From Kiritimatiellia bacterium (lineage in GTDB: Bacteria > Verrucomicrobiota > Kiritimatiellia > CAIKKV01 > CAITUY01), in assembly GCA_038330175.1 (NCBI GenBank), contig JBBQNS010000004.1, forward strand, positions 67 through 64,066: DNA of 64,000 nucleotides. The letters run 5' to 3'. The translations under genes and the position numbers were made by a program. The notes below the pieces were generated by a model that saw only the letters and a list, made by a program, of their open reading frames with translations, was not told the DNA's origin and searched no databases. Position 1 is the first letter of the stretch. Every line of letters begins with the position of its first letter. Below are positions 6,329 to 59,168 of this stretch, in pieces.

Positions 6329-6363
6329 CAAATTTCTTCGATCACTTTACTAACGACGTTTAC

Positions 6364-6639
6364 CCTCCTCCTCGCTGCGCGTGAGGACACGCGCAGCTAC
6401 ACCAATGCAATACGCACCTTTCGTTTGGCCCCTTGTAGCGGCGCATGTCCCCATGCGCCGAATTCTCTAGCAGCGTGTCGAACTTGCACAGCCTTCGGAC
6501 TCAAAAGTCACCACCGGCGGAGACCGCCGGCTCCAAAAATTTAAAGCGCGGGCTATGCTAGGTGAATTAAGCAATGGGCAACATGTGACGCTTGATTGCT
6601 GGCGCAATTTTATTCTGGAGCCGGCGGTCTCCGCCGGTA
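6364..6639 (+). repeat. structured ~280-nt repeat, copy 1 of 2 (direct repeat with 10419-10697)
   Basis: About 90% identical to copy 2. It contains the hairpin gctgcgcgtg-agga-cacgcgcagc, the hairpin cggcgcatg-tcccc-atgcgccg, and two self-palindromic arms accggcggagaccgccggctcca / tggagccggcggtctccgccggt about 80 nt apart. Confidence 0.85.
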
Positions 6640-6799: not shown

Positions 6800-8086
6800 T
6801 CAGGGAGCGCAAAAGCGGTAGAAACGGACCGGAGCGTTTGTCCACTGTGTGTCGCTGAAATAGGATAAACCGGCGGTCAGAGTGTTGGTGCTCAACGGGA
6901 ACCAAGCTGGTGTTGCGAGATTGGAACAAGCCTGAACAACGATATTCACGTTGGTGGGACCGCTGATGGTGAAGCCGAAGCCATTTTGACCCGCACCGAA
7001 GAAACCATCGTTCTCCGCATGCGGGTTCCATAGGATGGTCTGACGATCACAGAACGTCACGTTCCACCCCATGGTTTCCGACATGTAATAGACTGTCGCA
7101 TTTTCAGAACTCGAAAAGACCGAAAGACCTGGATTCGGGGCATCCCCTTTGAAATAGACTTCCTTCATGTTGCCACATGCTTCGAATGCAAAGTCCCCAA
7201 TGCTGGAGACGCTGTTGCCCATCGTGACGCTGGTCAGTTCGTAACAACATCGAAACGTATTCACCCCTATACGTTTGACGGAATCAGGAATCGTGATGCG
7301 AGTTAGGCCGGTGCATGCGGAAAAAGCTTCGTCACTAATATTGGTGACGCTCGAAGGGATGACGATACTGGCGAGGCTAGAACACATAGAGAACGCGAAG
7401 TCCCCAATATTAACAACGCTATCGGGAATAGTGACGTTGTTTAGACTGGCGCATCCTTCAAAGAGATAGTTTCCAAGATTTGTGATGCCGAAGGATATTG
7501 TGACGCTGGTCAGGTTGGGGCAACGAGAAAACACGGCGATCCCAATGGACTTAACGTTCGAAGGAATCATCATGGTGGACATGCCGCAGTAAGAGAAAGC
7601 ACCATCCCCAATACTAACGACACTCTCGGGAATTGTGATAGCAGGCAGATTGATGCAGCAGAAAAACGTATTTTCACCAATGCTGGTCAAGTTGTTGGGA
7701 AGCATCACGTTGGTCAGGCTGATACACTGATAAAATGCAGAACCCCCAATGGTGGAAACGTTCGAGGAAATCGTAACATCTGTCAGATTGGCACAATCAA
7801 AGAAAGCACCACTTCCAATATTGGTGACACCGGCTGGAGTTGTGTAGCTGCCCGCTTTGCCTCCAGAACATTGGATTAATGTTGTTTGGTTTTGATTGAA
7901 CAGAACCCCATCCACGCTGCTATATGTAGAGTTCAGAGCATCCACTGTTATCGCATTGAGGGTGCTACACGAACGGAACGCGCCGCCCCCGATACTGCTG
8001 ACGGTTTCGGGGATCGTGACATTGATCAGGCTGGCGCATCCAAGAAACGCGCCACTCCCGATGCTGGTTATGCCGTTAATGACGAT
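6800..8086 (-). pseudogene. BspA-family leucine-rich-repeat surface protein, 5'-truncated (no signal peptide)
   Basis: Repeated ~23-aa LRR units (..ITSIGDGAFSYC..LTSVTI..) typical of BspA-like LRR proteins. The N-terminal ~85 codons of the called ORF are antisense to the methyltransferase fragment and do not look like a leader. Confidence 0.55.
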
Positions 8087-10418: not shown

Positions 10419-10697
10419 CCCTCCTCCTCCCTGCGCGTGAGGACACGCGCAGCTACACCAATGCAACACGCACCTCTCGTTCGGCCCCTTGTAGCGGCGC
10501 ATGTCCCCATGCGCCGAACCCTCTAGCAGCGTGTCGGACTTGCACAGCCTTCGGACTCAACAGTCACCACCGGCGGAGACTGCCGACTCCAATGATTGAA
10601 AGCGCAGGCTATCCTCAGTGAATTAAGCAATGGGCAACACGTGACACTTGATTGCTGACGCAAATTTTCTTCTGGAGCCGGCGGTCTCCGCCGGTAA
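10419..10697 (+). repeat. structured ~280-nt repeat, copy 2 of 2
   Basis: Direct repeat of 6364-6639 with the same internal hairpins and inverted arms. Confidence 0.85.
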
Positions 10698-12081: not shown

Positions 12082-13047
12082 CTACGCTCTCGGGTGGGCA
12101 TCATCGTATACTTTCTTCAATTTTTCCACAGTTACATGTGTATAGATCTGGGTAGTGGACAAGCTGGCATGGCCCAGCAACTCCTGCACACTCCGTAAAT
12201 CGGCGCCTGCATCCAACATGTGGGTGGCAAAAGAATGCCGCAACGAATGCGGCGAAATGTCCGGGTTAAGATTGGCACCCAACAGGTATTTCTTCAGCAA
12301 CCGCTCAACCGACCGGCTCGTCAATTTGCCACCATGGACATTCAAAAATAGCGGACGGTCATTCGGACGCCGGCGCTCTATCTCTGGCCAGAGTTCATTC
12401 CGCAGCACAAGGGAGACTCGCAGGGCTTTGGCCGCTGGGCGTCCCAATGCGCACAGACGCTCTTTTTTACCTTTACCGCGCACCTGCACCACCCCGCTCA
12501 GGGAGTCCACCTGGGGCTCCAAAAGTCCGACGATCTCGGTAATACGGCCTCCGGTACTATATAGCACCTCGAGAATAGCTTGATCACGCAACGCGCAGTA
12601 TTCCACCAGCTTACGTTCACGCAACTGTTTCGGCTTTTTCGCATCTGCCCATAACTTCAGGGGCATTTCCAGCAAGCGGTTAATTTCATCGCGTGACAGG
12701 AAATTAGGCAGTTTCTTGGCGCGTTTTGGAGCCTTCAATCCCGAGAATGGATTCAGTGTTACCATCGCCTCACGCTCCATAAATTTATAAAACGCGCGCA
12801 GGCTGGACAATTTCCGAGACGTGGTCGTGGCCTCACTCCCGCGCTTCTGGAAATCAACTAAAAAGGCACGTGCCTTAAATCGATCAACGGTCTCCCATTC
12901 ATAGGGAGGCAAGGCATCTCCAGTCCAGGTGAAGCGGATAAACTGGGCGATATCCATCAGATAGTTAGCTATGGTGTGCCGTGACGCATTTCGTTCATGC
13001 TCCAGATGGGCGGCATACTGGGATACGCAAGGGTCATCCGTCATCAT
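12082..13047 (-). CDS. xerC: tyrosine recombinase XerC/XerD family
   Basis: C-terminal catalytic region ..HSLRHSFATHMLDAGADLRSVQELLGHASLSTTQIYTHV.. with the nucleophilic Tyr. An N-terminal SAM-like domain is present. The start is uncertain; the ORF extends to 13143. Confidence 0.85.
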   Translation of the reverse strand: MMTDDPCVSQYAAHLEHERNASRHTIANYLMDIAQFIRFTWTGDALPPYEWETVDRFKARAFLVDFQKRGSEATTTSRKLSSLRAFYKFMEREAMVTLNPFSGLKAPKRAKKLPNFLSRDEINRLLEMPLKLWADAKKPKQLRERKLVEYCALRDQAILEVLYSTGGRITEIVGLLEPQVDSLSGVVQVRGKGKKERLCALGRPAAKALRVSLVLRNELWPEIERRRPNDRPLFLNVHGGKLTSRSVERLLKKYLLGANLNPDISPHSLRHSFATHMLDAGADLRSVQELLGHASLSTTQIYTHVTVEKLKKVYDDAHPRA

Positions 13048-13654
13048 GGCCCCACCCTGCCCGGCTCCACCGAGGGCCGGCACATTGGAAGCCGAGGGGA
13101 GATGCGCAGGTTTGCGCTTCAGATAGGGCTCGTCAAGGTTCATAAGGTTGATTTCGTCATCAGAGAAAAATAGTCGGGGTATACAAGCAAATCAATTTTT
13201 TTCTCAGTCATCTCGCCAGGGCAAACGCCTCGAAGCGCTATCCGGGTAGTTCGCGCGCTATGAGCGCGACATTCTCTCCGCATGCAGGATGCCAATGGCG
13301 GGCTCGTAACGCCCAACACCATTAACTCTTCAAAGGCTATTGAAATAAAAATGATGCACCACCCGCTTTGCTTGAGGCACGGAGACACAGAGAACTCACA
13401 CATCGGTAGCGGCAAGTCCAAATGTGGCGTGTATTTCGTCCACGGGGGTACCCATTTAATATTTCACAGGTCTTCTCTGTGTCTCTGTGTCTCCGTGCCT
13501 CTAGCGCTAGCGAGTGGTATATCTTTTTCTGAAATAGACTTCGAAATGTTAGTGGCATTGGGCTCGTAGCGCCCGCCCTCCCCGCATAAATTAGATGCGT
13601 ATACTTTAGTCATCTCGCTTGACCTAAGGCTCTTTTTCCTTCACCCTTCCCAAC

Positions 13655-17961: not shown

Positions 17962-17982
17962 CCAGAAGACTCGCATAATTCG

Positions 17983-18113
17983 CCCTGCCCACGCGGCTCA
18001 GCCTCTTCGACAAGCTCAGGGCAGGCAAGCTTCGCCCTCCAGAAGAACATGATAGACAGAGATGAGATGTTTCTTTTGGAGGGCGATGCTTGCCGGGCCG
18101 CGTGAATAAAAGG
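17983..18113 (+). repeat. long-hairpin palindromic element, copy A of 3
   Basis: ccctgccc-acgcggctcag..gcttcgccctccagaaga-[loop]-tcttttggagggcga..gccgcg-tgaataaaagg. Shared with 21373-21486 and 50568-50686 (inverted). Confidence 0.8.
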
Positions 18114-18166
18114 TGTTGACTGCATTTCAGCTTTACTGATTTCCAGTATATGTTTATCCTGCTCTT

Positions 18167-21297: not shown

Positions 21298-21372
21298 GGC
21301 GCGTTTAGGCGCCCAGTGCTCGGTATGGATCCAAGTCCTCGCCTAAGGACGTTCCGACCACGGTGAACTCAC

Positions 21373-21486
21373 ATGATTCACCCTGCCCACGCGGCTCAGC
21401 AAGCTTCGCCCTCCAGAAGATATGATCTATAAGGGCAAGATTATTCTTCTGGAGGGCGAAGCTTGCTGAGCCGCGTGAATAAAAGG
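21373..21486 (+). repeat. long-hairpin palindromic element, copy B of 3
   Basis: Near-perfect ~30-bp stem cacgcggctcagcaagcttcgccctccagaaga / tcttctggagggcgaagcttgctgagccgcgtg with a ~25-nt loop. Confidence 0.85.
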
Positions 21487-21496
21487 CGCTGTAGTT

Positions 21497-21561
21497 CCTT
21501 TGTGTGCTTCGTGAGCTTCTGTTAAATTTCTTCTTCTTGGTTCCGGTTATGCCGGGTTAGG
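21497..21561 (+). repeat. conserved intergenic motif family 3, copy i of 4 (cctttgtgtgcttcgtgagcttctgttaaatttcttc..ttggttccggttatgccgggttagg)
   Basis: Shared core gcttcgtgagcttctgttcaaatttcttc with 45330-45385, 53610-53655 and 59088-59130. Confidence 0.75.
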
Positions 21562-25360: not shown

Positions 25361-25456
25361 ATTTTTATTTCGTCCTTCACCATATACCTCTGAGCCGCTG
25401 AATCAGTGAGCCCCTAATTTATAAGGTCAATAGTCTTTCATACAACAACTAAAATC

Positions 25457-25607
25457 AGCAGTTCTCATTATGGACCAGTTCGATCAATCATTCTCGGAGC
25501 GGAACGTGTAAACGTTCCGGAAATGCCCGGAATCGTCAACCACCTTCGTCAAGCTTCGGCGTGTCATGCCGATTCCGCTCCAAAAAAAATCATAATGATA
25601 ATTCACT
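25457..25607 (+). repeat. structured intergenic element family 4, copy 1 (carries a 32-nt insertion relative to copy 2)
   Basis: Shares about 110 nt with 31607-31728, including the perfect palindrome CGGAACGT-gtaa-ACGTTCCG (25500-25519) and nested inverted repeats gagcggaa/ttccgctc and ctcattatg/cataatga. Confidence 0.8.
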
Positions 25608-31606: not shown

Positions 31607-31728
31607 CAGCAGTTCTCATTATGGCCCTGTTCGATCAATCTTTCTAAGAGCGGAACGTGTAAACGTTCCGGAAATGCCCGGAATCGTCACCGATTCCGCT
31701 CCAAAAAAGTCATAATGACAATTACTGC
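31607..31728 (+). repeat. structured intergenic element family 4, copy 2; flanked by 9-bp direct repeat caacgcggg (MITE-like)
   Basis: Contains the same palindrome CGGAACGTgtaaACGTTCCG (31651-31670). Imperfect terminal inverted repeats cagcagttctcattatg / cataatgacaattactgc. caacgcggg lies on both sides (31598-31606 and 31729-31737). Confidence 0.7.
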
Positions 31729-35572: not shown

Positions 35573-36126
35573 GACGGCTTACCCATCACCCGATTTTTTA
35601 TAAAAAAAACAGGATTTCCCGCTACAATCTCCCACGCGCCAACATCCTTGATCACCACTGCCCGAGCTCCGACAACGGTGCCCTTCCCAACCTGAACGCC
35701 GGGCACTATAAAGGCATCGGCACAAATCCAGGCGTCATCTCCAATCGAAATGGGCGCCCGGACCAATGGCAAACCCGGGTCACAGTAGTCATGGGTACCG
35801 GCACACAAGTGGGCATATTGTGAAATTGTCACGCGCTCGCCCAGCGTCACCTTCCCTAGATCATAAATCCGGGCATACTCACCAATAGAGGACCAATCGC
35901 CCACGGTGAGGTTCCAAGGCTGTTCGATTCGGGCCGTTGGGTACACATTCACCTTTCGTCCGATCCGGGCCCCGTGAAGCCGGAGAAGAAACCGACGCCA
36001 GCCGAACATGGGGCGGAAACTGAACCGAAACAGGATAGCCCCACCACCCCACACTACACGGCGAAACATTTCGCTGCTGGAATATGAAGATACGTGACGA
36101 TTTTTCTCAATATCAGCGTGGATCAT
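35569..36126 (-). CDS. hexapeptide-repeat acetyltransferase (WcaF/WbbJ-like)
   Basis: Left-handed beta-helix repeats ..IGDDAWICADAFIVPGVQVGKGTVVGARAVV.. Confidence 0.75.
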   Translation of the reverse strand: MIHADIEKNRHVSSYSSSEMFRRVVWGGGAILFRFSFRPMFGWRRFLLRLHGARIGRKVNVYPTARIEQPWNLTVGDWSSIGEYARIYDLGKVTLGERVTISQYAHLCAGTHDYCDPGLPLVRAPISIGDDAWICADAFIVPGVQVGKGTVVGARAVVIKDVGAWEIVAGNPVFFIKNRVMGKPS

Positions 36127-36557
36127 GGCTTGACCTTCATTCCCGCTTTCACAGCAAGCGACTTTTGACGAACATCGAAGGTATAGAAATATTTGACGCC
36201 GAGAGCGGCGGCCGCCGCCACGTGCAGAATGTCCGTTGCGAGGGTACCGAGTTTCTCGGTGTGTGCCGCACTGAGCGCTTCCGCCTCAGCGTAGACTTCT
36301 GCCCAGGCAACAGGAGTTTCCACGAGGGCCCCAGCCCTGATGTCATCTTCGATGGCGGCAATAACGCCGTGACATTCTGCAGGGGTGATATCTTTTCGGT
36401 ACAGTGCAAGCCGGACGGCATTTCGCGATTCATGACGAAGCAAGGGCGTGAAAGCGAGAGGAGACTTGAACGTGGAGGCCATTTGTTGTGCTACCCTGCT
36501 GTTCGCATCCTGGCCGTAAAGGGACACAAGAAAACTGGTATCGGCGTAACCTACCAT
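36123..36557 (-). CDS. vapC: PIN-domain toxin (VapC)
   Basis: MVGYADTSFLVSLY.. with acidic residues in PIN positions. It overlaps the upstream antitoxin gene. Confidence 0.7.
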   Translation of the reverse strand: MVGYADTSFLVSLYGQDANSRVAQQMASTFKSPLAFTPLLRHESRNAVRLALYRKDITPAECHGVIAAIEDDIRAGALVETPVAWAEVYAEAEALSAAHTEKLGTLATDILHVAAAAALGVKYFYTFDVRQKSLAVKAGMKVKP

Positions 36558-36799
36558 CGCCGTTCCTCCCGTTCTTTCAAAACTTGCCCTGCAAGATGCG
36601 TGCGCTTTTCACCGAAGGTAGTTTTCGCGCGTGCCGCGAAGTCCGGCATCTTAAAGGTGGCCGGGGCTTGCGCCCGAGCCGGGCAAATCCGCGCGACCGG
36701 CCGAGTCCGATTCAACACGGTCACTTCTTCACCATCGGCAACCCACGCCAGCACGGTACTGAAATCGTGATGAACTTGTCTGATCGTTGCTGTCTTCAT
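36551..36799 (-). CDS. Phd/YefM-type antitoxin
   Basis: MKTATIRQVHHDFSTVLAWVADGEEVTVLNRTRPVARI.. is characteristic Phd/YefM. Confidence 0.7.
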   Translation of the reverse strand: MKTATIRQVHHDFSTVLAWVADGEEVTVLNRTRPVARICPARAQAPATFKMPDFAARAKTTFGEKRTHLAGQVLKEREERRW

Positions 36800-37914: not shown

Positions 37915-39228
37915 TTACCCACTCTTTTCCTTCTCCGACAATCCACTCCAGGTTGCCGGAACTGCAACCATTCCCCGCTGGCGCCGGTCAAGAGGTTCAG
38001 CCCGGTCATGCGCAACCGAAAGCACTGAAAATGAAAAGACGTCAGGAATCCAGTCGAGCCCCATCAGGGAGGCATGGCGTGAGGCGCCGACATGGATCTC
38101 AAACCGGCCTGGCAGAAAAGTTTTGCCAGGGATACTGCAGGTGATAAAGCGCTGCTGGCCATCTCCGACCGCAGAAAAGGGAGGGGTCAGAACCGTGCTG
38201 ACGCAACTTCCTCCGGAGTAGATTTCAATTCCCACCTGAACCTCTTGAATGGTCTCCCGGCTTCGAATCCCCATCGTGATCCCGACCAGCTCTCCATAAT
38301 TCAAGGTGCTGGTCTGCCGCCCGTCTTCCCCGCACAACTCAATCGTCTCAATCTGGAAGGGGGAAATCACCCGGTGATTTTCCGGGGCAAGCTCAACGCG
38401 CCCTTCCGAAGTTTGCCCGCTTTGCAGGTATTCAGACACCATATCCCCGGATGTCCCCTCCTTGAAAACGCCACCATCCTTCATCCAGATGACCCTTGAA
38501 CAAAGACTCACAACGGAGCCCATGTTATGGCTGACGAAAAGCACCGTGCGCCCGCCTTTGGCGACATCGCCCATTTTTCCGAGACACTTCTTCTGAAAAG
38601 CGGCATCCCCCACCGCCAAAACCTCATCCACTAGCAGTATCTCCGGCTCAAGATGCGCGGCGATGGCAAACGCGAGGCGCACATACATACCCGACGAATA
38701 CCGCTTCACGGGAGTGTCGATAAACTTGTCCACTTCAGCGAAGGCTACAATCGCATCGAATCGCGATCTGATTTCAGCCCGCGTCATCCCCATGATCGCA
38801 CCGTTCAAAAAGATATTTTCACGCCCGGTCAATTCGGGATGGAACCCCGTTCCCACTTCCAGAAGACTGGCCACGCGACCCCTCATCTTCACCTCGCCCA
38901 CCGTCGGCGCCGTCACGCGGGTCAGAATCTTCAGGAGGGTACTTTTGCCGGCTCCGTTCCGCCCGATAATGCCAAGGATTTCCCCGCGCTTAACTTCGAG
39001 GGAAACATTCTGGAGCGCCCATACATAAGCAGAGTTCTCAAGCGGCGTCGATCCAGTCGCCCTCACGGCTTCAAGCTGTTGCAATTGATCCAATCGCAAT
39101 GAGGGGTCCGGTCGCCCGCGCAACCGTGCCCAGCACCGGGATAGATCTTCGTGCAAACTCGTCCGCCCGACCAGTCCGAGCCGATAACGCTTGCCGAGAT
39201 TTTCGACCTTTATGACGACATTATTCAT
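37915..39228 (-). CDS. wzt: polysaccharide ABC-transporter ATP-binding protein (Wzt/TagH-like) with C-terminal extra domain
   Basis: Walker A GRNGAGKST, signature and Walker B ..ILLVDEVLAVGD.., with a ~180-aa C-terminal domain. The start is trimmed to MNNVVIKVENLGKRY. Confidence 0.85.
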   Translation of the reverse strand: MNNVVIKVENLGKRYRLGLVGRTSLHEDLSRCWARLRGRPDPSLRLDQLQQLEAVRATGSTPLENSAYVWALQNVSLEVKRGEILGIIGRNGAGKSTLLKILTRVTAPTVGEVKMRGRVASLLEVGTGFHPELTGRENIFLNGAIMGMTRAEIRSRFDAIVAFAEVDKFIDTPVKRYSSGMYVRLAFAIAAHLEPEILLVDEVLAVGDAAFQKKCLGKMGDVAKGGRTVLFVSHNMGSVVSLCSRVIWMKDGGVFKEGTSGDMVSEYLQSGQTSEGRVELAPENHRVISPFQIETIELCGEDGRQTSTLNYGELVGITMGIRSRETIQEVQVGIEIYSGGSCVSTVLTPPFSAVGDGQQRFITCSIPGKTFLPGRFEIHVGASRHASLMGLDWIPDVFSFSVLSVAHDRAEPLDRRQRGMVAVPATWSGLSEKEKSG

Positions 39229-39230
39229 GA

Positions 39231-39318
39231 GAGAAAGCTGAAAGCAGAAAGCTGAAAATTGAAATAAGACAGATAGGAGAAAGCAGAAAACAGAAAGCTG
39301 AAAGCTGGAAGCAGACAC
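39231..39318. repeat. low-complexity GAAAGCTGAAAG-type repeat block (left flank of four-helix-bundle cassette)
   Basis: Iterated agctgaaag/cagaaag units. This is the reverse-complement counterpart of the block at 39797-39885. Confidence 0.75.
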
Positions 39319-39372
39319 AAGCCCCTTGGTATGGCCTTAAAATTTATGCAAAAGTCATTCATCATTCCTCTT

Positions 39373-39777
39373 TTACTCTCCCTGAAATTTCTGCTTTCTG
39401 CTTTCAACTTTCAGCTTTCCTCTTGTTTTCTTCACCATGGTGGTGCAAATTGCGATGAGCTCATCAGATTTACGATAAAGATCTGCAAGCAAAATATCGG
39501 AAATTCCGCAATCATCTCGCAACAACTCAAGCCAAAGCTGAGATTCATCCGCTTCCTGCATACCCCCTTCGAGTTCCGAACAGAATTCGGCATCTGATCG
39601 GGCGCGCGATGCCTCCCTGATATGAGCCGCGACTGACGTGCCTGATCTCAACAACTGTGTACCGAGAACCCGCACTTCCTCACGTCCTTTCGGCAACCCA
39701 ACAAACAAACGGATTATCTTAGACGCAAACCCCTTGGCCCGCCCTCGAAATTCCTGCGAAAGTCGCCCCTCATTCAT
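39373..39777 (-). CDS. four-helix-bundle protein (TIGR02436 / 23S rRNA intervening-sequence protein family)
   Basis: ..LGTQLLRSGTSVAAHIREASRARSDAEFCSELEGGMQEADESQLWLELL.. matches the family consensus (..LTSQIRRAA.SI..NIAEG..R.S..EF..FL.IA.GS..E..). Confidence 0.75.
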   Translation of the reverse strand: MNEGRLSQEFRGRAKGFASKIIRLFVGLPKGREEVRVLGTQLLRSGTSVAAHIREASRARSDAEFCSELEGGMQEADESQLWLELLRDDCGISDILLADLYRKSDELIAICTTMVKKTRGKLKVESRKQKFQGE

Positions 39778-39796
39778 CCCCTTTTTCCCTCTCCCA

Positions 39797-39885
39797 AAAG
39801 TTTCAGTTTTTCAGTTCTCAGTTTTTTCAGCTTTCACTCAGCTTTCAGTTTTCTGTTTTCAGCTTTTAATTTTCAGCTTTTCCTC
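39797..39885. repeat. low-complexity CTTTCAGCTTT-type repeat block (right flank of four-helix-bundle cassette)
   Basis: Iterated tttcagctttt/cagtttt units. It ends exactly at the wzm stop codon. Confidence 0.75.
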
Positions 39886-40768
39886 ACACGGTATCCATGA
39901 AATTGCGCTCGACCCGGGTAAACAGGACCACTCCAAGCACCAACACCACCAGGGCAAATCCCGCGCTGTACAAAAGATGAACTGGCGCAAAGGTGCCCGT
40001 CCCCATGAATGCATATCGGAATGACTCAATAACGGAGGTCAGCGGATTGGCCAGCATCAACAGTCGATAGTTCCCATGCAAAGATGAGAGTGGAAAAATC
40101 GCAGGAGTCGTGTACATCAATAATTGCACGCCAAAGGTCAGCAGGAAGCGTAGGTCACGGTATTTGGTCGTTAGGGCAGAGAAAATGATACCTAATCCCA
40201 GCGCCAGACCCGCCATGATGAGCATCATGATCGGCAAAAGCCAAAGTACAGAAGTTGGATGAATGGAAGCGCCTGACAAGAAATACCACACCCAGAAGCA
40301 GGCGAAAAAAGCTAACCGCAGCCCAAATTGAATCAGCTCCGAAATCACAATAGAGACGGGCACAGAAAGCCTGGGGAAATACACCTTTCCGAAAATATGA
40401 GCATTAGACACAAAGGTGCTGGATGTGGAATTCAATACCCCGGCAAAATATCCCCATACAATCTGACCCGACATATAGAATAACAACTTAGGTAGGCCGT
40501 CCGTTGAGAGCCCAGCCATCGTGCCAAAGACCAACGTGAAAACCAACGTTGCCAAAAGGGGCTGAAGCACAAACCAAAGCGGCCCCAAGATCGTCTGTTT
40601 GTATTGAGCTACAAAATCACGTCGAATAAACAAGAGAATCAGATCGCGGTATCGCCATAAATCGCGGAGATGTAAATCAAACCAAGCGGCTTGAGGACGC
40701 AGAACCACATCCCATTTCTCAGGATCATCTGGGATTGGCACGTCTTGAATCTCCGAAGCCGGGCGCAT
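39884..40768 (-). CDS. wzm: ABC-2 type polysaccharide export permease (Wzm/TagG-like)
   Basis: Six TM segments and ABC-2 family organisation. It is adjacent to wzt. Confidence 0.8.
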   Translation of the reverse strand: MRPASEIQDVPIPDDPEKWDVVLRPQAAWFDLHLRDLWRYRDLILLFIRRDFVAQYKQTILGPLWFVLQPLLATLVFTLVFGTMAGLSTDGLPKLLFYMSGQIVWGYFAGVLNSTSSTFVSNAHIFGKVYFPRLSVPVSIVISELIQFGLRLAFFACFWVWYFLSGASIHPTSVLWLLPIMMLIMAGLALGLGIIFSALTTKYRDLRFLLTFGVQLLMYTTPAIFPLSSLHGNYRLLMLANPLTSVIESFRYAFMGTGTFAPVHLLYSAGFALVVLVLGVVLFTRVERNFMDTV

Positions 40769-41217
40769 CAGAAATCACCTCGTGGATAATCAGGCTTATT
40801 TCTCCGCCACCAAGCCCCTTGTCTCCAGAACCTCCATCCTCCTCCAATTCCCATGAAAGAGGCTACTAACATACAAATCACGGGCGCACGGAGCCGAAAG
40901 TCAACAAGTGAATGAAGCGCTACCCCCAGCAAAGCAAGAGACAAACAATAACGTCCCCAACGCCCTAAATCGAAATAGGAACGCCCTCGAACAGCGGGCA
41001 GAAACCACATCATTACCAATGTGCTCCCAAGTAATACGGTGCCCACCAAACCAAATTCCGCAAGAATCTGAAAATACTCATTATGGGCGTGACGGAAAAA
41101 ACCCGGGATATCCGATGGCTGATAGTAGGGAAACACTTCCGAAAAAGTTCCGGCGCCTGAACCAGCCACCCAGCGATCTGAAATCAGACGAATAACTCCG
41201 CTCAAGGGATGTGACAT
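40768..41217 (-). pseudogene. O-antigen ligase (Wzy_C/WaaL-like) C-terminal domain only
   Basis: It contains the Wzy_C signature HAHNEYFQILAEFGLVG. At 149 aa it is much shorter than the ~400 aa of full ligases. Confidence 0.45.
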
Positions 41218-42756: not shown

Positions 42757-43689
42757 TTAGATCAGTCGGGTCCCCTGGGAGTCGACGGTAGTGACCCAGC
42801 TTTTGGAGGCAATTCCCAGGGAATTGAAAGTCAACACCATTTGTTTTTCAATAGCCCGCGCCTTTTGGAGGTTGTCAGTAATGGCAAACACCGTGGGGCC
42901 AGATCCCGAAATGGTAACCCCATCGGCGCCTGCTTTGAGTGCATTTTTCTTTACCAGATCAAAGCCCGGGATCAATTTGGATCGGACGGGTTCAACAATG
43001 ACGTCGTTCAGGCATCTTGAAAACAGGGAATAATCATTTTTGGCAAAAGCGGCCGTGATCAGCGCCGTATTCGCCATATTCGCAATAAAAGACTCCATGG
43101 GAACTTGGCTGGGCAACATCTTGCGCGCTTCACGGGTCAGGACAACAACGTTCGGAGTTACCAGTACGATTTTCAAACTTCGGATGGAGCCAATTCGGGT
43201 AACGTCCAAGGGAACGCAACATCGGGTTAGGGTCGCCCCGCCCATCAGCGCGGGTGCCGTATTGTCCGCAAAAAACCCACCTGAGACAACGGCTTCAGCC
43301 TCTGTAGCTGCCAATATGAGTTGTTCCAGGCTAAGTTGAGCCCCATAAAGGATATTCGCGGCAAAAGCGCCTGCTGCAGCAGAGGCCGCGCTTGAGCCTA
43401 GTCCGGAGCCGATGGGTAATCCCTTGTATAGGGTAATCTCAATTCCGCCCTTGATATTGAGATATTTAAAAACATTTGCCGCGGCCAGGGCGGCGGTATT
43501 TTTCTTGGGGTCTGCAGAAAGCGGAACCGGCGAATGAACCGCCGCAATACGGATTTTGCCGCCCGACAAACGACGCGCCTCGACAACATCCCCGAGATTT
43601 TTAACCGCAAGCCCCAAAACATCGAAGCCAGGCCCGATATTTCCGATCGTTGCAGGAGAAAACACTTTGATCTGTTTCATGGCGCTCAT
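42757..43689 (-). CDS. thrB: homoserine kinase
   Basis: GHMP kinase motif ..LPIGSGLGSSAASAAAGAFA.. The start is ambiguous (43689 or 43680). Confidence 0.85.
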   Translation of the reverse strand: MSAMKQIKVFSPATIGNIGPGFDVLGLAVKNLGDVVEARRLSGGKIRIAAVHSPVPLSADPKKNTAALAAANVFKYLNIKGGIEITLYKGLPIGSGLGSSAASAAAGAFAANILYGAQLSLEQLILAATEAEAVVSGGFFADNTAPALMGGATLTRCCVPLDVTRIGSIRSLKIVLVTPNVVVLTREARKMLPSQVPMESFIANMANTALITAAFAKNDYSLFSRCLNDVIVEPVRSKLIPGFDLVKKNALKAGADGVTISGSGPTVFAITDNLQKARAIEKQMVLTFNSLGIASKSWVTTVDSQGTRLI

Positions 43690-43857
43690 CTTCACAAGGA
43701 GCGCATCACGCCGCAATCAAAAATTTTAGCCTTGTTTGCTGTTGTCTTGAATCATTGGATTCCAGTATATTAGCGGCTCATTTGTCTCAATGAGGAATAT
43801 ATTATTAGCCTGAAAAATAAAGAAATTCTTGATTATCATGTTGGTGGCAAAATCGGC

Positions 43858-44307
43858 ATGCGTGTAACTAAAAAGCTCACCGGCCCGGATGATCTCTCCC
43901 TCGCCTATACCCCCGGAGTAGCTTTACCCGTCAAGGAAATCGCCCACGATCGTGAGGCGCTCTACTGTTGCACGGCAAAAGAAAACCTGGTTGCCGTGGT
44001 GTCCGACGGCACCGCTATTCTTGGACTGGGCGACCTGGGCGCAGAAGCCAGTATCCCGGTAATGGAAGGGAAAGCCGTTCTTTTCAAAGATTTTGGTGAT
44101 GTTGATGGATGGCCCGTTCCGGTCAATCACTGCCGTATGGATGGAAAAAACACTGGTAAAACGGATCCACAACGGGTGATAGATACCGTCATGGCGATTG
44201 CGCCCATGTATGGTGGAATTAATCTGGAAGATATTACTGAATGGGGACAGGCTGCTTACCTTCTTCATGTTCACACCACGCCCGCTCACTCATGCCAGGC
44301 AACGTAG
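43858..44307 (+). pseudogene. NAD(P)-dependent malic enzyme, N-terminal ~135 aa only (3' part replaced by inserted cassette)
   Basis: ..LSLAYTPGVA..ENLVAVVSDGTAILGLGDLGAEASIPVMEGKAVLFKDFGDVD..GGINLEDI matches the MaeB N-terminal domain. Homology stops exactly at the left 23-bp direct repeat (44306). Confidence 0.7.
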
Positions 44308-44341
44308 TGCCTGGCCTACTGTTGAGGGTTGTGGATCCCAG

Positions 44342-44776
44342 CTAGAAGGGGTTCCATACACGCGCAAATCCGCAATCACGAAAATCTGATCCGTTACGGG
44401 TGGCAAACTCAGAAACACCGTGATGTTTCAGAATCATGGCAAGTCGCATGTCAAATAGGCGACGGTAGGCAAATGCCTGCCCTGCAGCATGCTGCCACAC
44501 CTGATCCATGATTCCATGGCCAGGCACGAGGTCGACGATTCGCCAGACGGGATTGGAGCGCAGTCCCCGGATGGTCACCACCGCCTTTTCGGACGAAAGA
44601 GGCGTCTGGCAAACGACCGGATTCCTTAACAGGCAATACAATTCCATGAGCACCTGCTCGCAAAGACAGAAGTCTGCTCGAGTACCGCAGGATTCCAGAA
44701 AACCCCGCGCCCGATCATGGAAAGGCGAATCTTTATTAAATGCCGGGAAGAGAATATTCGTGTCGCACGATATCAT
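44342..44776 (-). CDS. vapC: PIN-domain toxin (VapC-like)
   Basis: MISCDTNILFPAFN.. PIN N-terminal motif. It overlaps the upstream antitoxin gene by 4 nt. Confidence 0.65.
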   Translation of the reverse strand: MISCDTNILFPAFNKDSPFHDRARGFLESCGTRADFCLCEQVLMELYCLLRNPVVCQTPLSSEKAVVTIRGLRSNPVWRIVDLVPGHGIMDQVWQHAAGQAFAYRRLFDMRLAMILKHHGVSEFATRNGSDFRDCGFARVWNPF

Positions 44777-45063
44777 TTCCGGGGCGCCTTAACTTTGTAG
44801 TTCAAACCTGATTCAGCCACTTTGGCATGTTCCATGTGCAGTTGCTCCCGCCAATCAGCGATGACGAAAGGATCCGTGCCTCCCAGACTGTGGGCGGCAG
44901 GCAAATTCCAATCGGAGCGGGACAAGTCTGTTGGGGCGGAAACCGAAACCATGTATTCAAGTCCTCGCCGAACCAGCTCTGTTAACGAAATCTCCATGCG
45001 CGATGCCAGTTGCTTGGCGGAATCGTACAGGGTATCAGGAATCTGAACTTGAGTTCTTATCAT
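44773..45063 (-). CDS. antitoxin (VapB-like, RHH/CopG-type)
   Basis: MIRTQVQIPDTLYDSAKQLASRMEISLTELVRRGLEYM.. ribbon-helix-helix-type antitoxin. Confidence 0.6.
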   Translation of the reverse strand: MIRTQVQIPDTLYDSAKQLASRMEISLTELVRRGLEYMVSVSAPTDLSRSDWNLPAAHSLGGTDPFVIADWREQLHMEHAKVAESGLNYKVKAPRK

Positions 45064-45433
45064 GATTAAAAAATAACATCACATGGATATGATGTAAACT
45101 TAAAAAACGGAATGCTGAAGAGGCACTTGTAAAACCTAGAATCCAGGGAAGCGTAAAGTGCCAAGTTATTTTCCGGCGAGATCAGGAAGTCTGAGGCTGC
45201 GGAGGACAAGAGTGCCTGGCTTACTGTTGAGGGCTCCTCAGTACGGTGGGCACCTACTCACTTACTCACGGCTGCCAGCGGAAGAAGTTGTTCTTGCCGA
45301 TTGCGCCTGCGGCGTACTCGCCGCTGGCGCCTTTGCGTGCTTCTGTTCAAAATCTTCCTCTTGGCTCCGGCTATGCTGGGTTAGGATCATGGGCATGATT
45401 GGTGAGCACCTGCTTCCAGGCCTCCACGAGAAA

Positions 45434-45706
45434 CTACTGCGGGATGCCAGCACCCTGGAGGTTGGTGCCCCGCCCCAATACACAATCGTGGTAGCCGAAC
45501 CCGGCAAAAATCTGGGGCATTTGGGAGGGGTGCTCAAACATATCGCAGATAAAACCAACAGGCATAGGTTCAACGCCCCACTCATTCGAAATACGGCGGC
45601 CCAACAATAGATTGCGAATCAGCGCTTCATCCCCCACACAGAACAGGTCCGGCATGGTGTACCACTGCCCGACCAAAATGCGTCCCGACCGTATCAGTGC
45701 CCCCAA
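45434..45706 (-). pseudogene. glycoside hydrolase family 38 (alpha-mannosidase) N-terminal fragment
   Basis: ..LLLGRRISNEWGVEPMPVGFICDMFEHPSQMPQIFAGFGYHDCVLGRG.. parallels the GH38 consensus ..G..P..GW.PD.FGHS.Q.PQIL...G....F.RG. Confidence 0.5.
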
Positions 45707-45838
45707 GTGGGGTCTAGCTAAAAAATTCAGATCGGATGGCGAAATCCCGCTCTGGACTCAAGAAATACACGGGCAGTGTCACAAACTGATTTCTCAACTC
45801 CGGCCAGAAGGACCGTTTCAGAGCCACGGGGACACAAT

Positions 45839-46640
45839 TCAGGCGTAACTTTGTCGGCGGATTCCCCCCTCCGGCAGGGCGTAATGCGGAAAACAGGCTC
45901 TAAAAGTAGTCCCCTTTCCCAACTCGCTGCTGACGGTTATAAATCCGTTATTCTGCTTTAAAATGCCATTAACAGTAGAAAGCCCCATTCCATAACCTTC
46001 GCCTACATCCTTGGTTGTGAAAAAAGGCTCGAAAATATGATCGATTGTGGCCTGATCCATTCCACACCCGGTGTCGCTCATCGAAAGCATGACATACTGG
46101 CCGGGAATTGCTTCGGCATTGCCACTTATCAAACCATCTGCATTGAGGCTGTGAGGAATAACGTTAATGCGCTCAATCGGAACGCCCTCTTTTTTCAACA
46201 TCGCAAGCAGTTCCTCCGTCTGAGGTTCAAGCATCAAGCGTTTTCCAACCAAATCGTGAAGCGTGCGAATGCCCGGGGCAGCATAAATAGCATAGGGGGA
46301 TTGCTGAAATATCACAGCTAAAACGACGACGGGATTCCCTGCTGCCCGCGCCAAAAGCAATCCACTCGTACCTACCCCGAATTCCGCTTTGCCTGTAACC
46401 ACCTCGCTCACCGGATCGGTATCTGGAGCGGCTTCTTTGATTGTAACATCCAAACCGGCTTCCCGAATAGTAGCCCTGCTCTTTTGTCGCATAATAACCG
46501 GCAAACTGATAAGCATGCGTCCATTTAAGTTGCAAGGTAACAGGTTCAAGCGCCGTAACAGGCAAAGCGAAAAGAAAGGAAGCAATCAGCAGCATGGTGC
46601 CGACCAACCAGATACGGCGTGAAAAATATTCCATTTCTGG
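45839..46640 (-). pseudogene. sensor histidine kinase with NMT1/SsuA-like periplasmic binding domain, frameshifted and lacking HisKA
   Basis: The N-terminus MEYFSRRIWLVGTMLLIASFLFALPVTALEPVTLQLKWTHAYQFAGYYATKEQGYY (ORF 46227-46652) continues in another frame (45839-46585). It runs through the SBP-like segment straight into the HATPase G-boxes (..SDTGCGM..GYGMGLSTV..) with no H-box. Confidence 0.55.
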
Positions 46641-46730
46641 TATCTCCTTCAATGATTTCTAACCGTGATAGTTACACGAAACGGTTAATCTGTCGAGGAT
46701 AGCCTGCAATCTGGGAAGCTATTCGAAGCG

Positions 46731-49262
46731 TTAGGGCCGGACACCTGCCCCCCCGTGAAACCGGAAATCGGGTGGAACGGCCCGAGCACAAACCATAGCG
46801 GCCCGAAGCGGACGCAGGGACCGAACGTGAATGCGCCTGATCTCGCCCGGGAGCAGGTCAAAATAATCATCTGCAGGCATGGCGCCAGCAGGCAACTCCA
46901 GATGCACAGCGTGGGCATAGGTTGCGGATCGCACCTCAACCGTATCGCCACGAATCACACGTACCATTAGTTGTGCCGGACTAATCTGTAACTGCCGGTA
47001 ATCCATCGCCCGCAGACTTGCCGGCAAGATATCGCTCTTCCCCACCGGCTTGGCCACCCACAGGCCCGCAGCGGCGTCATGACGACCGCGCCGGAATCGA
47101 GCCACCTCGGTCCGGGCCGCCGCCCTGGCAGTAACCCGGCGACAGTTCAGATCAGCACTCTTGCCATCAAAGCTAATGTAGCCGCACTCGAGCTCAAGTT
47201 TGACATCATCCCGCGTGTCATTGGCGGCTATGACACGGATATCATTCCCTTCGGCACGCAGGATCAGCCGCACCGGCGCCAGGGCGCGACGCACGAAGTA
47301 GAATGACGGCTTCCGCCGGAGGAGATAGTCAATGATCGTCCAGCCAATCTCGCCCCAGCAATCGTTGTACATCCAGAAGAGTCCGCCGTGACAGTTGGCA
47401 CGGGCCCGGAAGGATTCCAAGGAATACCCGTACATCAGGCCCTGGCAAAGCCCTGAATAGAGGAAATACTCGTCCACCGTCAACCCCTCCAGATCCTTGT
47501 AATGCTTGCGAATACCGGCGTCCACCGTATCTTTCTCGAAGGTGTTGTTATGGTGCTGCCATACCCGGCCATGGCGATCAAAGTCGGCCCCATCCAGATA
47601 CGTTTCAACCGTCTTGCGCACCGGCGCACCGATATAGCCGTACTCTGAAACAAAGAGCGACTGGCATTTGTCGTATTCCTCCGGCGTGATACGCTTCGGC
47701 ATGTCGGGATTCATCATGCAGTCGCCCCAGTGGTGCCGGTCACCCACCCCCTCCTCGTTCGGGGTGGTTTCGCCACCATAGGGCGAACCGTTCCAGTAGG
47801 GAATTTCCGGGCAATTGCGCCTCACCACATCGGGCAGCAGTTCATTGAAAATCCAGGCGCCGCCACGGGTTCGCTCCTGCCACCAATCCTTGAAGCCCCA
47901 GTTGATTTCATTGCTGCCGCTCCACAGCGCCAGGCAGGGATGCTGCCGCAAACGCCGGGTCTGGTAATCGGCCTCCCGCTCCGCCTCCAACCGGAACCAC
48001 TCCAGATGATCGGGATACGGCGCGCAGGCGTACATGAAGTCCTGCCAGATCAGGATGCCATATCGGTCGCAGGCGTCGTAAAAGGCCTCCGACTCATATA
48101 AGCCTCCACCCCAGACCCTTAACATGTTGAAGTTGGCTTCACGCGCCTCACGCACCAGGGTCTCGTATTTGGCCGAAGGGGTTCGGGCATAGATCGAATC
48201 CGCAGGGATCCAATTGGCGCCCTTGCAGAACACTTTGACGCCATTGACGCGGACCGCGAATGTCCCCTTGCTGGTATCCAGTTCGACAAATCGGATTCCG
48301 GTGTTGAAAGCCGGAAAGACCGCAGTTTCGTCCCCTACGCAAACGGTCGCCTCGACGCGATGCAAATGGTGTTCGCCATAGCCATTGGGCCACCAGAGTT
48401 GTGGACGCTCCAATCGGATCATCAAGTCGATGTGGTTGCTCCCCGAGCGTAGGAGTCCGGTCCATTCGGCAACATGCCGGTGGCCGTTCGGCTCGGTGAC
48501 CGCGAGGGTCACCGTACCGTCCAGGGTCTTCCAGTAATGCAATTGATCCACCGTAACCGCCGCTTTCAGCAGGATTTCATTAGCAACGTGGCGGACGGGC
48601 TGGAGGTGAACCTGGCGGATACAGGCCGTCTTAAGCAGCCTCAATTTCACATCCCCGGCGATGGCCGTGGTGGCCAGACGCGGACCCCAGTCCCAGCCAA
48701 ATGAATATTGCGGCTTGCGGACCATGACACGCCTTTGATCGCCACGCTCCGGGCGTCCGTTTCCCGCCTCAGTACCAGCCCGCACCCCGTCCGGCGCATC
48801 CAAGTCCGATTCACAGACAGTTTCGGTTCCGGTGGTCAAGCGTACCAGCAGGCTATTCTTTCCCGCCTGCAGGAACGGTTTAACGTCGAGGATGAAAGGG
48901 CGGAACGTATTGCGGTGCGAGCCGAGCGGCAGGCCATTAAGAAAGATCTCAGCATTGGAATCAAGGCCGTTGAGTTCAAGCTCCACACGATCGGCCTCTT
49001 TCCAACCCGCAGGCGCCTTGAAGGTCCGGCGGTACCACCAGGAACGATCCTCAGTCCACCGGCAATCGAAGCTGTTCAATCCGAGCAGCGGCTCCTTGAT
49101 CCGTCCGGCGGCAATGAGCGCCTGATGGATATCGCCTGGCACCGGCGCGCTCAACCAGCCCTCCGGCGCATGGTTCAACACCAACGCCTTCGAGCCGGTC
49201 TCGCACCCCAGAACGTCGTCTCGCAGTTCCCATTTCCCGTTCAGTGATACTTCATGAAACAT
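46731..49262 (-). CDS. glycoside hydrolase family 2, beta-mannosidase-like
   Basis: 843 aa. N-terminal ..LNGKWEL.. sugar-binding domain start and GH2 catalytic TIM-barrel region (..NEINW.., ..WQDFMYAC..). Confidence 0.8.
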   Translation of the reverse strand: MFHEVSLNGKWELRDDVLGCETGSKALVLNHAPEGWLSAPVPGDIHQALIAAGRIKEPLLGLNSFDCRWTEDRSWWYRRTFKAPAGWKEADRVELELNGLDSNAEIFLNGLPLGSHRNTFRPFILDVKPFLQAGKNSLLVRLTTGTETVCESDLDAPDGVRAGTEAGNGRPERGDQRRVMVRKPQYSFGWDWGPRLATTAIAGDVKLRLLKTACIRQVHLQPVRHVANEILLKAAVTVDQLHYWKTLDGTVTLAVTEPNGHRHVAEWTGLLRSGSNHIDLMIRLERPQLWWPNGYGEHHLHRVEATVCVGDETAVFPAFNTGIRFVELDTSKGTFAVRVNGVKVFCKGANWIPADSIYARTPSAKYETLVREAREANFNMLRVWGGGLYESEAFYDACDRYGILIWQDFMYACAPYPDHLEWFRLEAEREADYQTRRLRQHPCLALWSGSNEINWGFKDWWQERTRGGAWIFNELLPDVVRRNCPEIPYWNGSPYGGETTPNEEGVGDRHHWGDCMMNPDMPKRITPEEYDKCQSLFVSEYGYIGAPVRKTVETYLDGADFDRHGRVWQHHNNTFEKDTVDAGIRKHYKDLEGLTVDEYFLYSGLCQGLMYGYSLESFRARANCHGGLFWMYNDCWGEIGWTIIDYLLRRKPSFYFVRRALAPVRLILRAEGNDIRVIAANDTRDDVKLELECGYISFDGKSADLNCRRVTARAAARTEVARFRRGRHDAAAGLWVAKPVGKSDILPASLRAMDYRQLQISPAQLMVRVIRGDTVEVRSATYAHAVHLELPAGAMPADDYFDLLPGEIRRIHVRSLRPLRAAMVCARAVPPDFRFHGGAGVRP

Positions 49263-50396: not shown

Positions 50397-50567
50397 AAAA
50401 CTCCTCTAATTAACTTATATTGTTTCTGGCACTCGTAAGTTGAGAGTGCCTCTTTCGGACTGAAATTGTGGCGATGTTGCCACAGGGTGGGCAACAAGAG
50501 CAAGGATGAAGGCAGCACCCAAATTCTCGTGCCTAAGGGCTTGGTCTCTCCTGGAAACTTCATCATA

Positions 50568-50686
50568 CACCCTTTATTAGCGCGGCTCAGCAAGCTTCGC
50601 CCTCCAGCAGAAAAATCCTGCCTTTGTAGATCATATTCTTCTGGAGGGCGAAGCTTGCCTGAGCCGCGCGGGCAGGGTGAATCAGG
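50568..50686 (-). repeat. long-hairpin palindromic element, copy C of 3 (inverted orientation)
   Basis: caccctttattag-cgcggctcagcaagcttcgccctccag..ctggagggcgaagcttgcctgagccgcg-cgggcagggtgaatcagg. It is the reverse complement of the A/B consensus, including the terminal tgaataaaagg and ccctgccc blocks. Confidence 0.85.
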
Positions 50687-50919
50687 CGGCCCATCATCAG
50701 ACATTCTTGCGCAGTGGCAGTGAGAGATCATCAATGGATAATAGGGTGTGTTGCATAAGGAATTTCATTAAGGCTTAGTCCGATCGTGATCCACGAGGCG
50801 CGATCAGCCAGCTGCTCGACCTGGTTCATAAGCGCTAGACGGCAGGAGCGTCGGCGCCGGATCGCCCGCCTGTTGCGGTAACATCGCATAGGCAATGCCG
50901 GACAGCGTCTGTGCACAAA

Positions 50920-53585: not shown

Positions 53586-53748
53586 GGTTCCTGAGGATGC
53601 TAGTGTTTTCTCTTTGCGTTCTTCACGAGCTTCTGTTCAAATTCTTTCTTCTTCGAATCATGACCAAGATGCGATTGATTCAAGTCGTAAGGCACTAGGA
53701 AACTCTTATGAAACTACCCACCCGTAATCTATTCACTGGTGCAGGTTC

Positions 53749-58298: not shown

Positions 58299-58375
58299 CG
58301 GGGTGTAGCGCAGCCTGGTAGCGCGTCAGCCTTGGGCGCTGAAAGTCGTGGGTTCAAATCCCGCCGCCCCGACCA
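58299..58375 (+). tRNA. tRNA-Pro (anticodon UGG)
   Basis: CGGGGTG-TA-GCGC-AGCCTGGTA-GCGC-G-TCAGC-CTTGGGC-GCTGA-AAGTC-GTGGG-TTCAAAT-CCCGC-CGCCCCG-A-CCA. Cloverleaf with a 7-bp acceptor stem, anticodon loop cuUGGgc and encoded CCA. Confidence 0.9.
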
Positions 58376-58953: not shown

Positions 58954-59168
58954 TCCTATTTTCACGACTGGACACTGAAAAATATTTTGAACAGAAGCTC
59001 ACCAAGAACGCGAAGTTAAGGATTCATCCCACTGCGGGCATGCCCGCCGGAGTCCGGCATAGGCGGGAGGTGGTAGCAAATCCATTCTCCTTTGTGGGCT
59101 TCGTGAGCTTCTGTTCAAATTTCTTTCCCCGCGAAACGGGTGCTGGCCCCCTAAGTGCCCGATTAGTC

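Follow-up and report, generated by a model that had tools for sequence, protein, structure and literature searches.

A vapBC operon between two copies of a 23-bp sequence

A stretch of 64,000 nucleotides from the metagenome-assembled genome (MAG) of a Kiritimatiellia bacterium (GCA_038330175.1, contig JBBQNS010000004.1; hereafter the window) carries a vapBC toxin-antitoxin (TA) operon bracketed by two direct copies of a 23-bp sequence. The operon is the only intact gene unit in a ~2.5-kb stretch of gene scars between thrB and a GH2 gene. A broken malic-enzyme gene lies on its left, and remnants of a GH38 alpha-mannosidase gene and of a sensor histidine-kinase gene lie on its right. From the malic-enzyme promoter to the right repeat, the locus is composed as follows.

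43735-43803, + strand: malic-enzyme promoter and 5′ leader, conserved; aligns upstream of the intact gene in the relative L014; promoter-like TTGTCT/TATATT at 43742-43771
43804-44235, + strand: malic-enzyme stump, codons 1-144 of 433, with the start ATG changed to ATT
44236-44305, no strand: unrelated non-coding DNA (70 bp) that separates the malic break from the left 23-mer
44306-44328, + strand: left 23-mer copy, AGTGCCTGGCCTACTGTTGAGGG, its 3′ end 13 nt short of the vapC stop codon
44342-44776, - strand: vapC, intact PIN-domain toxin of 144 aa (NCBIfam TIGR00028 match)
44773-45063, - strand: vapB-like antitoxin of 96 aa, with a 4-nt ATGA overlap onto vapC
45064-45098, - strand: predicted vapBC promoter/operator (promoter scan), -35 TTTACA (45098) and extended -10 TATTTT ending at 45070
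45099-45210, no strand: 112-bp spacer within the repeat-bounded segment, without homology to relatives or to the rest of the window and unique to the locus
45211-45233, + strand: right 23-mer copy, the same as the left at 22 of 23 positions and in direct orientation

VapC matches the model TIGR00028 (Mtu_PIN_fam) with 86.2 bits against a cut-off of 73.6, residues 1-144 of the protein aligning with profile positions 2-141 of 143. The Pfam PIN model is not reached by this protein, and precomputed Pfam PIN matches exist for most of its homologues. These number 172, and the named ones are MAG proteins of Kiritimatiellia or Lentisphaerae. In an alignment of 16 of them (56-100% identity), the tetrad D5/E40/D109/D131 is invariant. 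The antitoxin gives weak, RHH-like (ribbon-helix-helix) matches over residues 3-40, all below cut-offs (RHH_1, E=0.098; RHH_3, E=0.13; RelB/DinJ, E=0.005), and an upstream partner open reading frame (ORF) is conserved at all related vapBC loci, called with 96-97 aa at most of them. An initial annotation, made from the sequence alone, had described a PIN toxin and an RHH antitoxin with a 4-nt overlap; the toxin, a VapC by its TIGR00028 match, and the overlap stand, while the RHH identity is only weakly matched. Between the predicted -35 and -10 elements lies an inverted repeat, ACATCA-n8-TGATGT. Three relatives have this promoter block almost unchanged, and it marks the limit of nucleotide homology.

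By these matches, an intact vapBC type II TA operon with its own predicted promoter sits between the 23-mer copies. It shares with known type II VapBC modules the PIN toxin with a D-E-D-D tetrad, the small upstream antitoxin with an ATGA overlap, a promoter of its own and an operator-like inverted repeat. It differs from them in the weakly detected RHH domain of the antitoxin, in a family found in PVC-group MAGs only and known from sequence alone, and in the lack of plasmid relatives: no plasmid or phage relative of the cassette was found by DNA, and none by protein in a plasmid collection.

The repeat itself was correctly recorded in the initial annotation. The two copies differ only at position 11, where the left has C and the right has T. 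A search of the window at up to 3 mismatches returns these two matches only and none in 100 shuffles; at up to 8 mismatches nothing rises above the shuffle background, so the window holds no third copy and no degenerate copies beyond that background. When both copies are aligned with their flanks, identity stops sharply at 23 nt. By a rough estimate, (64,000^2/2 pairs) x ~1e-12, chance alone would yield ~2e-3 pairs of this kind across the window. The repeat-bounded piece measures 882 bp and consists of 13 bp, vapC, vapB, the promoter and the 112-bp spacer.

The source is a metagenome-assembled contig, and contigs of the Logan assembly break near the region, so that chance or an assembly artefact must be considered as the origin of the pair. 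However, an independent Logan contig (L002, run SRR19962012, 1124 bp) is 100% identical to 44205-45328. Since it includes both repeats and the malic/non-malic junction, these are not artefacts of MAG assembly. The exact blocks shared by the copies (10 and 12 nt) are also too short to mislead an assembler with k of at least 21, and not one of the 100 shuffles contained even a single match. The repeat pair is real and non-random, and an origin by chance or misassembly is hardly credible. Two other pairs in the region were set aside as chance: a 16-nt pair at 44189-44204 and 45292-45307 (14/16), of which ~0.25 are expected per 1.5 kb by estimate, and an 11-bp inverted pair at 44163-73 and 44328-38, which is at chance level.

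Five related vapBC loci (VapC identity 72-83%) occur in five other gene contexts. Their neighbors are a radical-SAM gene, an NAD-binding dehydrogenase gene, Uma2 and nitroreductase genes, and sulfatase and glycosidase genes; the fifth (L007) is a short metagenome contig in which the gene downstream of vapBC is cut off. Nucleotide homology across these loci is confined to 44345-45098 (~754 bp, ~75%), from the stop codon to ~35 nt upstream of the ATG. None of the five has flanking direct repeats of at least 15 nt around the operon, or the hairpin of the present locus. The ~754-bp block shared with five other contexts agrees with the initial view of vapBC as a small mobile unit. Judged by this distribution, vapBC behaves as a discrete, horizontally moving unit, and the 23-mer pair is peculiar to the present locus.

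At one of these loci (L020, 682-2285), vapBC is placed with gaps of 22 and 27 nt between a 276-aa sulfatase ORF and a glycosidase gene. The sulfatase ORF is short for its family and is followed by a 99-aa ORF, which may reflect a TA operon beside a damaged gene or a low-coverage frameshift.

Beyond the window, the 23-mer was sought in two public collections, both without the source genome, whose other contigs were outside the search scope. The scan of one genome per species (185,579 species) gave one match, inside a Granulicella coding region, and that of JGI metagenomes gave three single, unrelated matches. About one chance match is expected, by estimate, for 20 specified bases at that collection scale, and the matches are chance only. 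A 32-nt likeness of the left-repeat region to a metagenome coding sequence (L011) arose only after selection by a 21-mer and was likewise rejected as chance.

A second TA pair in the window (36123-36799, - strand) consists of an 82-aa Phd/YefM-like antitoxin, named so by position, and a 144-aa PIN toxin (PF01850, E=2.3e-5). It is wedged between the acetyltransferase and methyltransferase genes of a polysaccharide cluster and overlaps the acetyltransferase gene by 4 nt. This pair is unrelated to the vapBC described here, and no comparable flanking repeats were found around it. A 22-nt pair at 35882 and 37245 (18/22; ~0.06 expected by estimate) has both of its copies in coding genes.

The truncated malic-enzyme gene

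The malic-enzyme stump matches PF00390 (E=4.7e-23, profile 15-171 of 182), and the NAD-binding domain PF03949 is not found in it. Its natural comparison is the locus L014 of the MAG GCA_037128595.1, whose ThrB is 95% identical to that of the window. There, an intact 433-aa malic enzyme with both domains is encoded 1.9 kb from thrB, in divergent orientation as in the window. The stump is 91% identical to codons 1-145 of this gene at the amino-acid level and 80% at the nucleotide level. The start ATG of L014 aligns with the ATT at 43804, and no canonical start codon occurs between an in-frame stop at 43771 and the ATG at 43858.

The end of homology was placed by tblastn, with seven homologues and with the intact orthologue as queries, and by tblastx with the loci of two relatives. 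In every test the homology spans 43804 to 44235-44238, with GGINLEDI as the last residues. The DNA alignment with L014 stays in register through GAAGATAT(T/C) at 44235 and then collapses. All sequenced homologues continue from GGINLEDI into AAPACFEIEDRL, and the intact allele would read GCGGCCCCGGCCTG... (AAPACFEIE) past 44235. The 3′ part of the gene was not found anywhere in the 64 kb by tblastn or tblastx, which agrees with the initial remark that the sequence past the right repeat does not continue malic enzyme. A candidate remnant there, ‘APQYGG’ at 45236-45253, is attributed to chance; it was returned with two homologues at E=1.4-5.4 only and comes from a part of the protein that is not next after the break.

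It had been claimed that malic-enzyme homology ends exactly at the left repeat. This is wrong, as the homology ends at 44235-44238 against six relatives (tblastn/tblastx) and in the DNA alignment with the orthologue. The next 70 bp have no similar DNA in the window or in the fetched loci and are the source of the 23-codon read-through tail of a 149-aa ORF. The only contact of the malic ORF with the left repeat is the fortuitous TAG stop of this tail (44305-44307). The 149-aa ORF is not a conserved stand-alone malic N-domain protein, an alternative that the initial annotation had itself raised: the short malic homologues continue into AAPACFEIEDRL and are fragments due to contig ends or frameshifts, and the syntenic relative with the 95%-identical ThrB has the full 433-aa gene. 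The alignment to an intact locus that had been proposed thus identifies, at the level of sequence, a truncated pseudogene broken at 44235/44236.

The position of this break changes the relation between cassette and gene. The cassette had been described as inserted into the malic-enzyme gene and truncating it; the gene is truncated, but its break point is 70 bp away from the left repeat, on the outer side. What the repeats bracket is thus a piece within non-coding DNA, and they do not coincide with the malic break. With this gap on the left and no malic-enzyme sequence past the right repeat, the arrangement is not a simple insertion whose removal restores the gene, and in-silico deletion of the insert restores no ORF. 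A causal link from the repeats to the truncation is not supported: they do not coincide with the break, and they do not emerge as recombination sites in general use.

The dN/dS of the stump against its orthologue is 0.03, equal to that of the neighboring thrB (0.025), with a dS of 1.5. Its divergence would thus have accrued almost entirely under selection, which suggests that the break is recent. The end of the Logan contig at 44205 falls exactly one 31-mer before the break, as expected if a branching sequence is present in the sample. This hints that the sample may also hold a sequence identical up to the malic break and then diverging, from an intact allele or from another copy of the gene. 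Of the Logan ends nearby, the remaining three lie in dispersed repeats, at a short motif (45328 and 45341) and in a palindromic element like a miniature inverted-repeat transposable element (MITE; 50664).

Compared with L014 (8183-9956), 1.77 kb are absent from the window between thrB and the malic promoter (43725-43735); in L014 this segment carries a 42-aa ORF and a gene with HPr/CBM48 domains. Synteny is also lost beyond thrB, where L014 has a V-type ATPase operon and the window has DUF3109 and DUF1456 genes.

Anatomy of the repeat sites and the search for a recombinase

The 23-mer is not itself palindromic, and both of its outer flanks contain arms complementary to it.

44294-44315, no strand: perfect 8-bp palindrome GCCAGGCA-ACGTAG-TGCCTGGC, the right arm of which is the 5′ part of the left 23-mer
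45234-45256, no strand: degenerate inverted copy of the 23-mer adjoining the right repeat, giving an imperfect ~43-nt hairpin

The left palindrome is the core stem of a predicted DNA fold, which as a whole is not significant (z=-1.7); the right fold pairs 45212-45254 and is not significant either (z=0.0). The shared 23-mer thus provides the 3′ arm in one hairpin and the 5′ arm in the other. The counterpart of the left palindrome arm at the right copy matches at only 4/8 positions, short of a complete dyad core. When one repeat and the insert are removed in silico, the left arm GCCAGGCA, a single 23-mer and the right arm (45234-45256) are joined into a compound palindrome, which again folds no better than shuffles (z=-1.8).

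Hairpins on either side of an operon could be terminator-like insulators, functional halves that are kept by selection or local duplication and have no role in mobility. Each copy does lie in a hairpin; the left one is 26 nt past the stop codon of vapC, and the right one is 113 nt from the -35 element, on its upstream side. Yet no T-tract follows either hairpin, and a terminator scan finds neither. The 23-mer is also used differently at the two sites: the 5′ part of the left copy pairs upstream, whereas the right copy pairs as a whole and downstream. As the folds are no better than shuffles and the sequence is not conserved at any related vapBC locus, a purely structural role of this kind is very unlikely.

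No transposase ORF occurs between the repeats, and the scan of further ORFs in the window found none either. The two ends of the insert, TTGTGGATCCCAGC and GCTGCGGAGGACAA, agree at 9/14 positions by eye and do not form terminal inverted repeats. An insertion sequence or transposon with a target-site duplication was rejected on these grounds, having neither inverted repeats nor a transposase and a duplication of 23 bp against the usual 2-14 bp. A Tn3-type end was rejected as well; the GGGG at 44243 has no inner TAAG (by eye) and no partner repeat.

A search for a cassette-linked recombinase found none, the sole tyrosine recombinase in the window being an Xer-type enzyme at 12082-13143, 31 kb away. 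A Xer/dif-like site was considered for the left palindrome, which has the 8-6-8 layout, and was rejected, as the palindrome bears no known resemblance to dif and the right copy is incomplete.

Integron gene cassettes are bounded by attC sites, with R''(RYYYAAC)/R'(GTTRRRY) outer boxes and L boxes at their 3′ end. The present piece resembles integron TA cassettes in being a small, promoter-bearing TA unit with a hairpin just past its 3′ end, and GTTGAGG within the 23-mer matches GTTRRRY at 6/7 positions. In contrast to attC, GTTGAGG is at the center of the right hairpin and not at its end, the outer stem of the left hairpin is CC(G)CTCA/TGAGGG, no R''/R' pair stands at the hairpin ends, and the structures reach at most 48 nt. 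Integron-integrase models score far below cut-off, and there is no attC array. An attC identity was rejected on the misfit of box and arm positions and the lack of IntI. Rfam searches of 43600-46800 gave no match at E<=5.

In prophages and integrative elements, an identical core is repeated at attL and attR. Like such sites, the 23-mers place nearly the same core, in direct orientation, at either end of a foreign segment. They differ in that the segment is only 0.9 kb, with no integrase and no tRNA or tmRNA target at the locus; the only tRNA gene of the window is at 58299-58375.

How lone chromosomal TA pairs enter and leave genomes is still poorly understood, and it is only lately that a TA operon was described with a short site on each side, of which an operon-less strain has a single copy. 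In Photorhabdus laumondii, a 24-bp res-I-like palindrome stands on either side of a ParE/RelE26 operon (Belot et al. 2026, PMC13617665). The sequence is single-copy in a strain without the operon, no mobility genes are found at the locus, and the palindrome is 90% identical to a known Tn3-family res site I (PMC13617665). The present locus is alike in having a lone chromosomal TA operon with its promoter, two near-identical flanks of ~24 bp and no mobility gene. Unlike the Photorhabdus sequence, the 23-mer is non-palindromic and resembles no compared site, its empty site was not found, and the operon has no Tn3-like relative in the plasmid collection. TA pairs also adjoin res site I in Tn3-family transposons, where recombination at this site exchanges them (Lima-Mendez et al. 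2020, PMC7157771). Those modules are likewise PIN/RHH-type TA pairs, and they travel beside a resolvase crossover site; the present locus differs from them in lacking tnpA, tnpR, tnpI and tnpS/T, a 38-bp GGGG...TAAG terminal repeat and a recognizable three-subsite res.

The initial annotation had suggested that the direct repeats may be recombination sites. In this reading, the 23-mers would be reusable sites (res-, dif- or att-like) at which a recombinase acting in trans excises and integrates a ~0.9-kb, promoter-bearing TA mini-cassette. The complete TA unit between direct repeats, the 8-6-8 palindrome around the left copy, a layout of tyrosine-recombinase core sites, and the Xer-type recombinase in the genome (12082-13143) would all fit, as would the published TA operon between duplicated res-I-like palindromes (PMC13617665) and the TA modules at res site I (PMC7157771). 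On the other hand, only two copies occur in 64 kb and the collections gave only chance matches; the 23-mer is non-palindromic and its right copy has no partner arm; the second TA pair of the window and the five related vapBC loci have no such sites; and there is neither an adjacent recombinase nor a plasmid or phage relative by DNA, nor one in plasmids by protein. Reuse of the sites is therefore considered improbable. Similarly doubtful is its specific form, in which the 23-mers would be the crossover sites of a minimal non-autonomous vapBC element, moved by a trans-acting, possibly Xer-like, recombinase among hairpin-type chromosomal sites in Kiritimatiellota. If true, the mini-cassette reading would extend the pattern of TA operons between duplicated res-like sites to a new phylum and to a new, non-Tn3 type of site.

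Proposed insertion and rearrangement at the locus

The sequence to the right of the repeats is also degraded.

45325-45390, + strand: shortened copy of a dispersed lineage repeat of ~40-65 nt, CTTTGCGTGCTTC..TGTTCAAAATCTTCC..GGGTTAGG, 85% identical over 47 nt to 21515-21561
45390-45800 (outer limits approximate), - strand: internal piece of a GH38 alpha-mannosidase gene (PF01074, E=3e-10, profile 69-146 of 270)
45839-46652, - strand: remnant of a sensor histidine-kinase gene, frameshifted and with a large part deleted internally

In six-frame reading, the GH38 remnant has an in-frame stop and a frameshift. In the kinase remnant, a periplasmic NMT1-like domain (residues 41-166) is fused straight to the last ~80 residues of HATPase_c, and a different frame (ORF 46227-46652) encodes the N-terminal signal and the beginning of the binding domain. 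The GH38 fragment and frameshifted sensor kinase of the initial annotation are borne out by the PF01074 match and the NMT1/HATPase_c fusion. Beyond the kinase remnant the GH2 gene is intact, and the remaining window is ordinary chromosome (trpEGD, aroB, ruvA, yebC, thrB, kdtA).

Such a concentration of scars could mean that the repeat is the by-product of one complex replication-based or end-joining rearrangement, with template switching at microhomology, and that vapBC was carried in on a joined fragment. The locus has at least 4 novel junctions in 2.5 kb (44235/6, ~45390, ~45800-45840 and the internal kinase deletion), the malic break appears recent, synteny with the close relative is lost to either side of thrB and the malic stump, and a dispersed repeat stands at the GH38 boundary. 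However, the duplication is near-perfect over 23 nt and symmetric around an intact operon, whereas junction microhomology is usually 2-10 nt, and no copy of the 23-mer is found at the other junctions. It is unlikely that the repeat arose in this way, and the same holds for the idea that a single event also broke the malic gene and made the GH38 and kinase stumps.

The explanation that we favor, with moderate confidence, is a one-off insertion of the 882-bp vapBC-bearing piece into hairpin-rich non-coding DNA, which would have duplicated a 23-bp target or crossover sequence. The two 23-mers would be the duplicate left behind by this single insertion. Site-specific recombination through a shared core may have produced them as attL/attR-like junctions; equally, they may stem from a long staggered cut that was filled in. 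On this view the spot was unstable and acquired the malic truncation, the GH38 stump and the kinase deletion as separate scars, each left by deletion or rearrangement, and the addictive TA operon may have persisted there as the sole intact gene.

Several observations lead to this preference. The repeat is non-random, its identity is confined to 23 nt, and its junctions recur in an independent assembly. The operon occurs in six contexts, and no further copies of the 23-mer were found in the searched sequence. The flank arms are complementary to the repeat, and the neighborhood is full of pseudogene scars and small dispersed repeats. Finally, the malic break could be placed against an intact syntenic orthologue and appears recent, and an analogous case is available in Photorhabdus (PMC13617665).

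A number of points weigh against a one-off insertion. An empty site, with the 70-bp spacer, one 23-mer and the right flank contiguous, was not found among the searched sequences, so that the insertion is deduced and not observed, and the closest relative, L014, is rearranged at the locus. At 23 bp, the duplication greatly exceeds the usual length of transposon target duplications. Terminal inverted repeats are absent (9/14 at best), and no recombinase or transposase is near. The right copy lacks the left palindrome arm expected of a complete recombinase core site (4/8), the hairpins fold no better than shuffles (z=-1.7 and 0.0), and the related vapBC loci have no such footprint. The search for the 23-mer covered the window and two public collections, not the rest of the source genome.

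As it stands, the locus is one unreplicated footprint beside ordinary pseudogene decay. It yields a gain in annotation, namely a malic-enzyme pseudogene and an intact vapBC operon, with no new mechanism shown. It is also a second, phylogenetically remote candidate for the bracketed-TA pattern, with cleanly defined boundaries and inside what appears to be a very recent gene-breaking rearrangement.

The repeat at the GH38 boundary belongs to a dispersed intergenic motif of ~40 nt, CTTTGCGTTCTTCGCGAGCTTCTGTTCAAATTCTT, built of three 9-nt units (CTTYKCGWK). Its copies are at 21496-21538 (+), 45325-45390 (+), 53608-53653 (+), 58980-59015 (-) and 59085-59127 (+), and at 7192-7231 in a relative (L004/L005). 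Those at 21496 and 45325 are longer by ~30 nt, extending to ...GGTTCCGGTTATGCCGGGTTAGG. Logan contigs break at this motif, for which Rfam gives no match.

Other repeats are scattered through the window. The palindromic MITE-like element, ~95-115 bp long, is present in three self-complementary copies with 80-90% identity (17969-18116, 21367-21486 and 50567-50688). A 278-bp direct repeat of 92% identity (6363-6639 and 10419-10696, ~4 kb apart) flanks genes for an LRR protein and a DUF3368 (PIN-like) protein, and a repeat of 83 + 35 bp (91-94% identity) is shared by two intergenic regions 6 kb apart (25456-25603 and 31607-31723). Another 149-aa ORF (40768-41217, - strand) matches only the last third of the Wzy_C (O-antigen ligase) profile and is probably a gene fragment. 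A gene for a 23S-rRNA-intervening-sequence-type protein (39373-39777) lies inside an ABC-transporter operon and has short flanking repeats (region 39228-39886).

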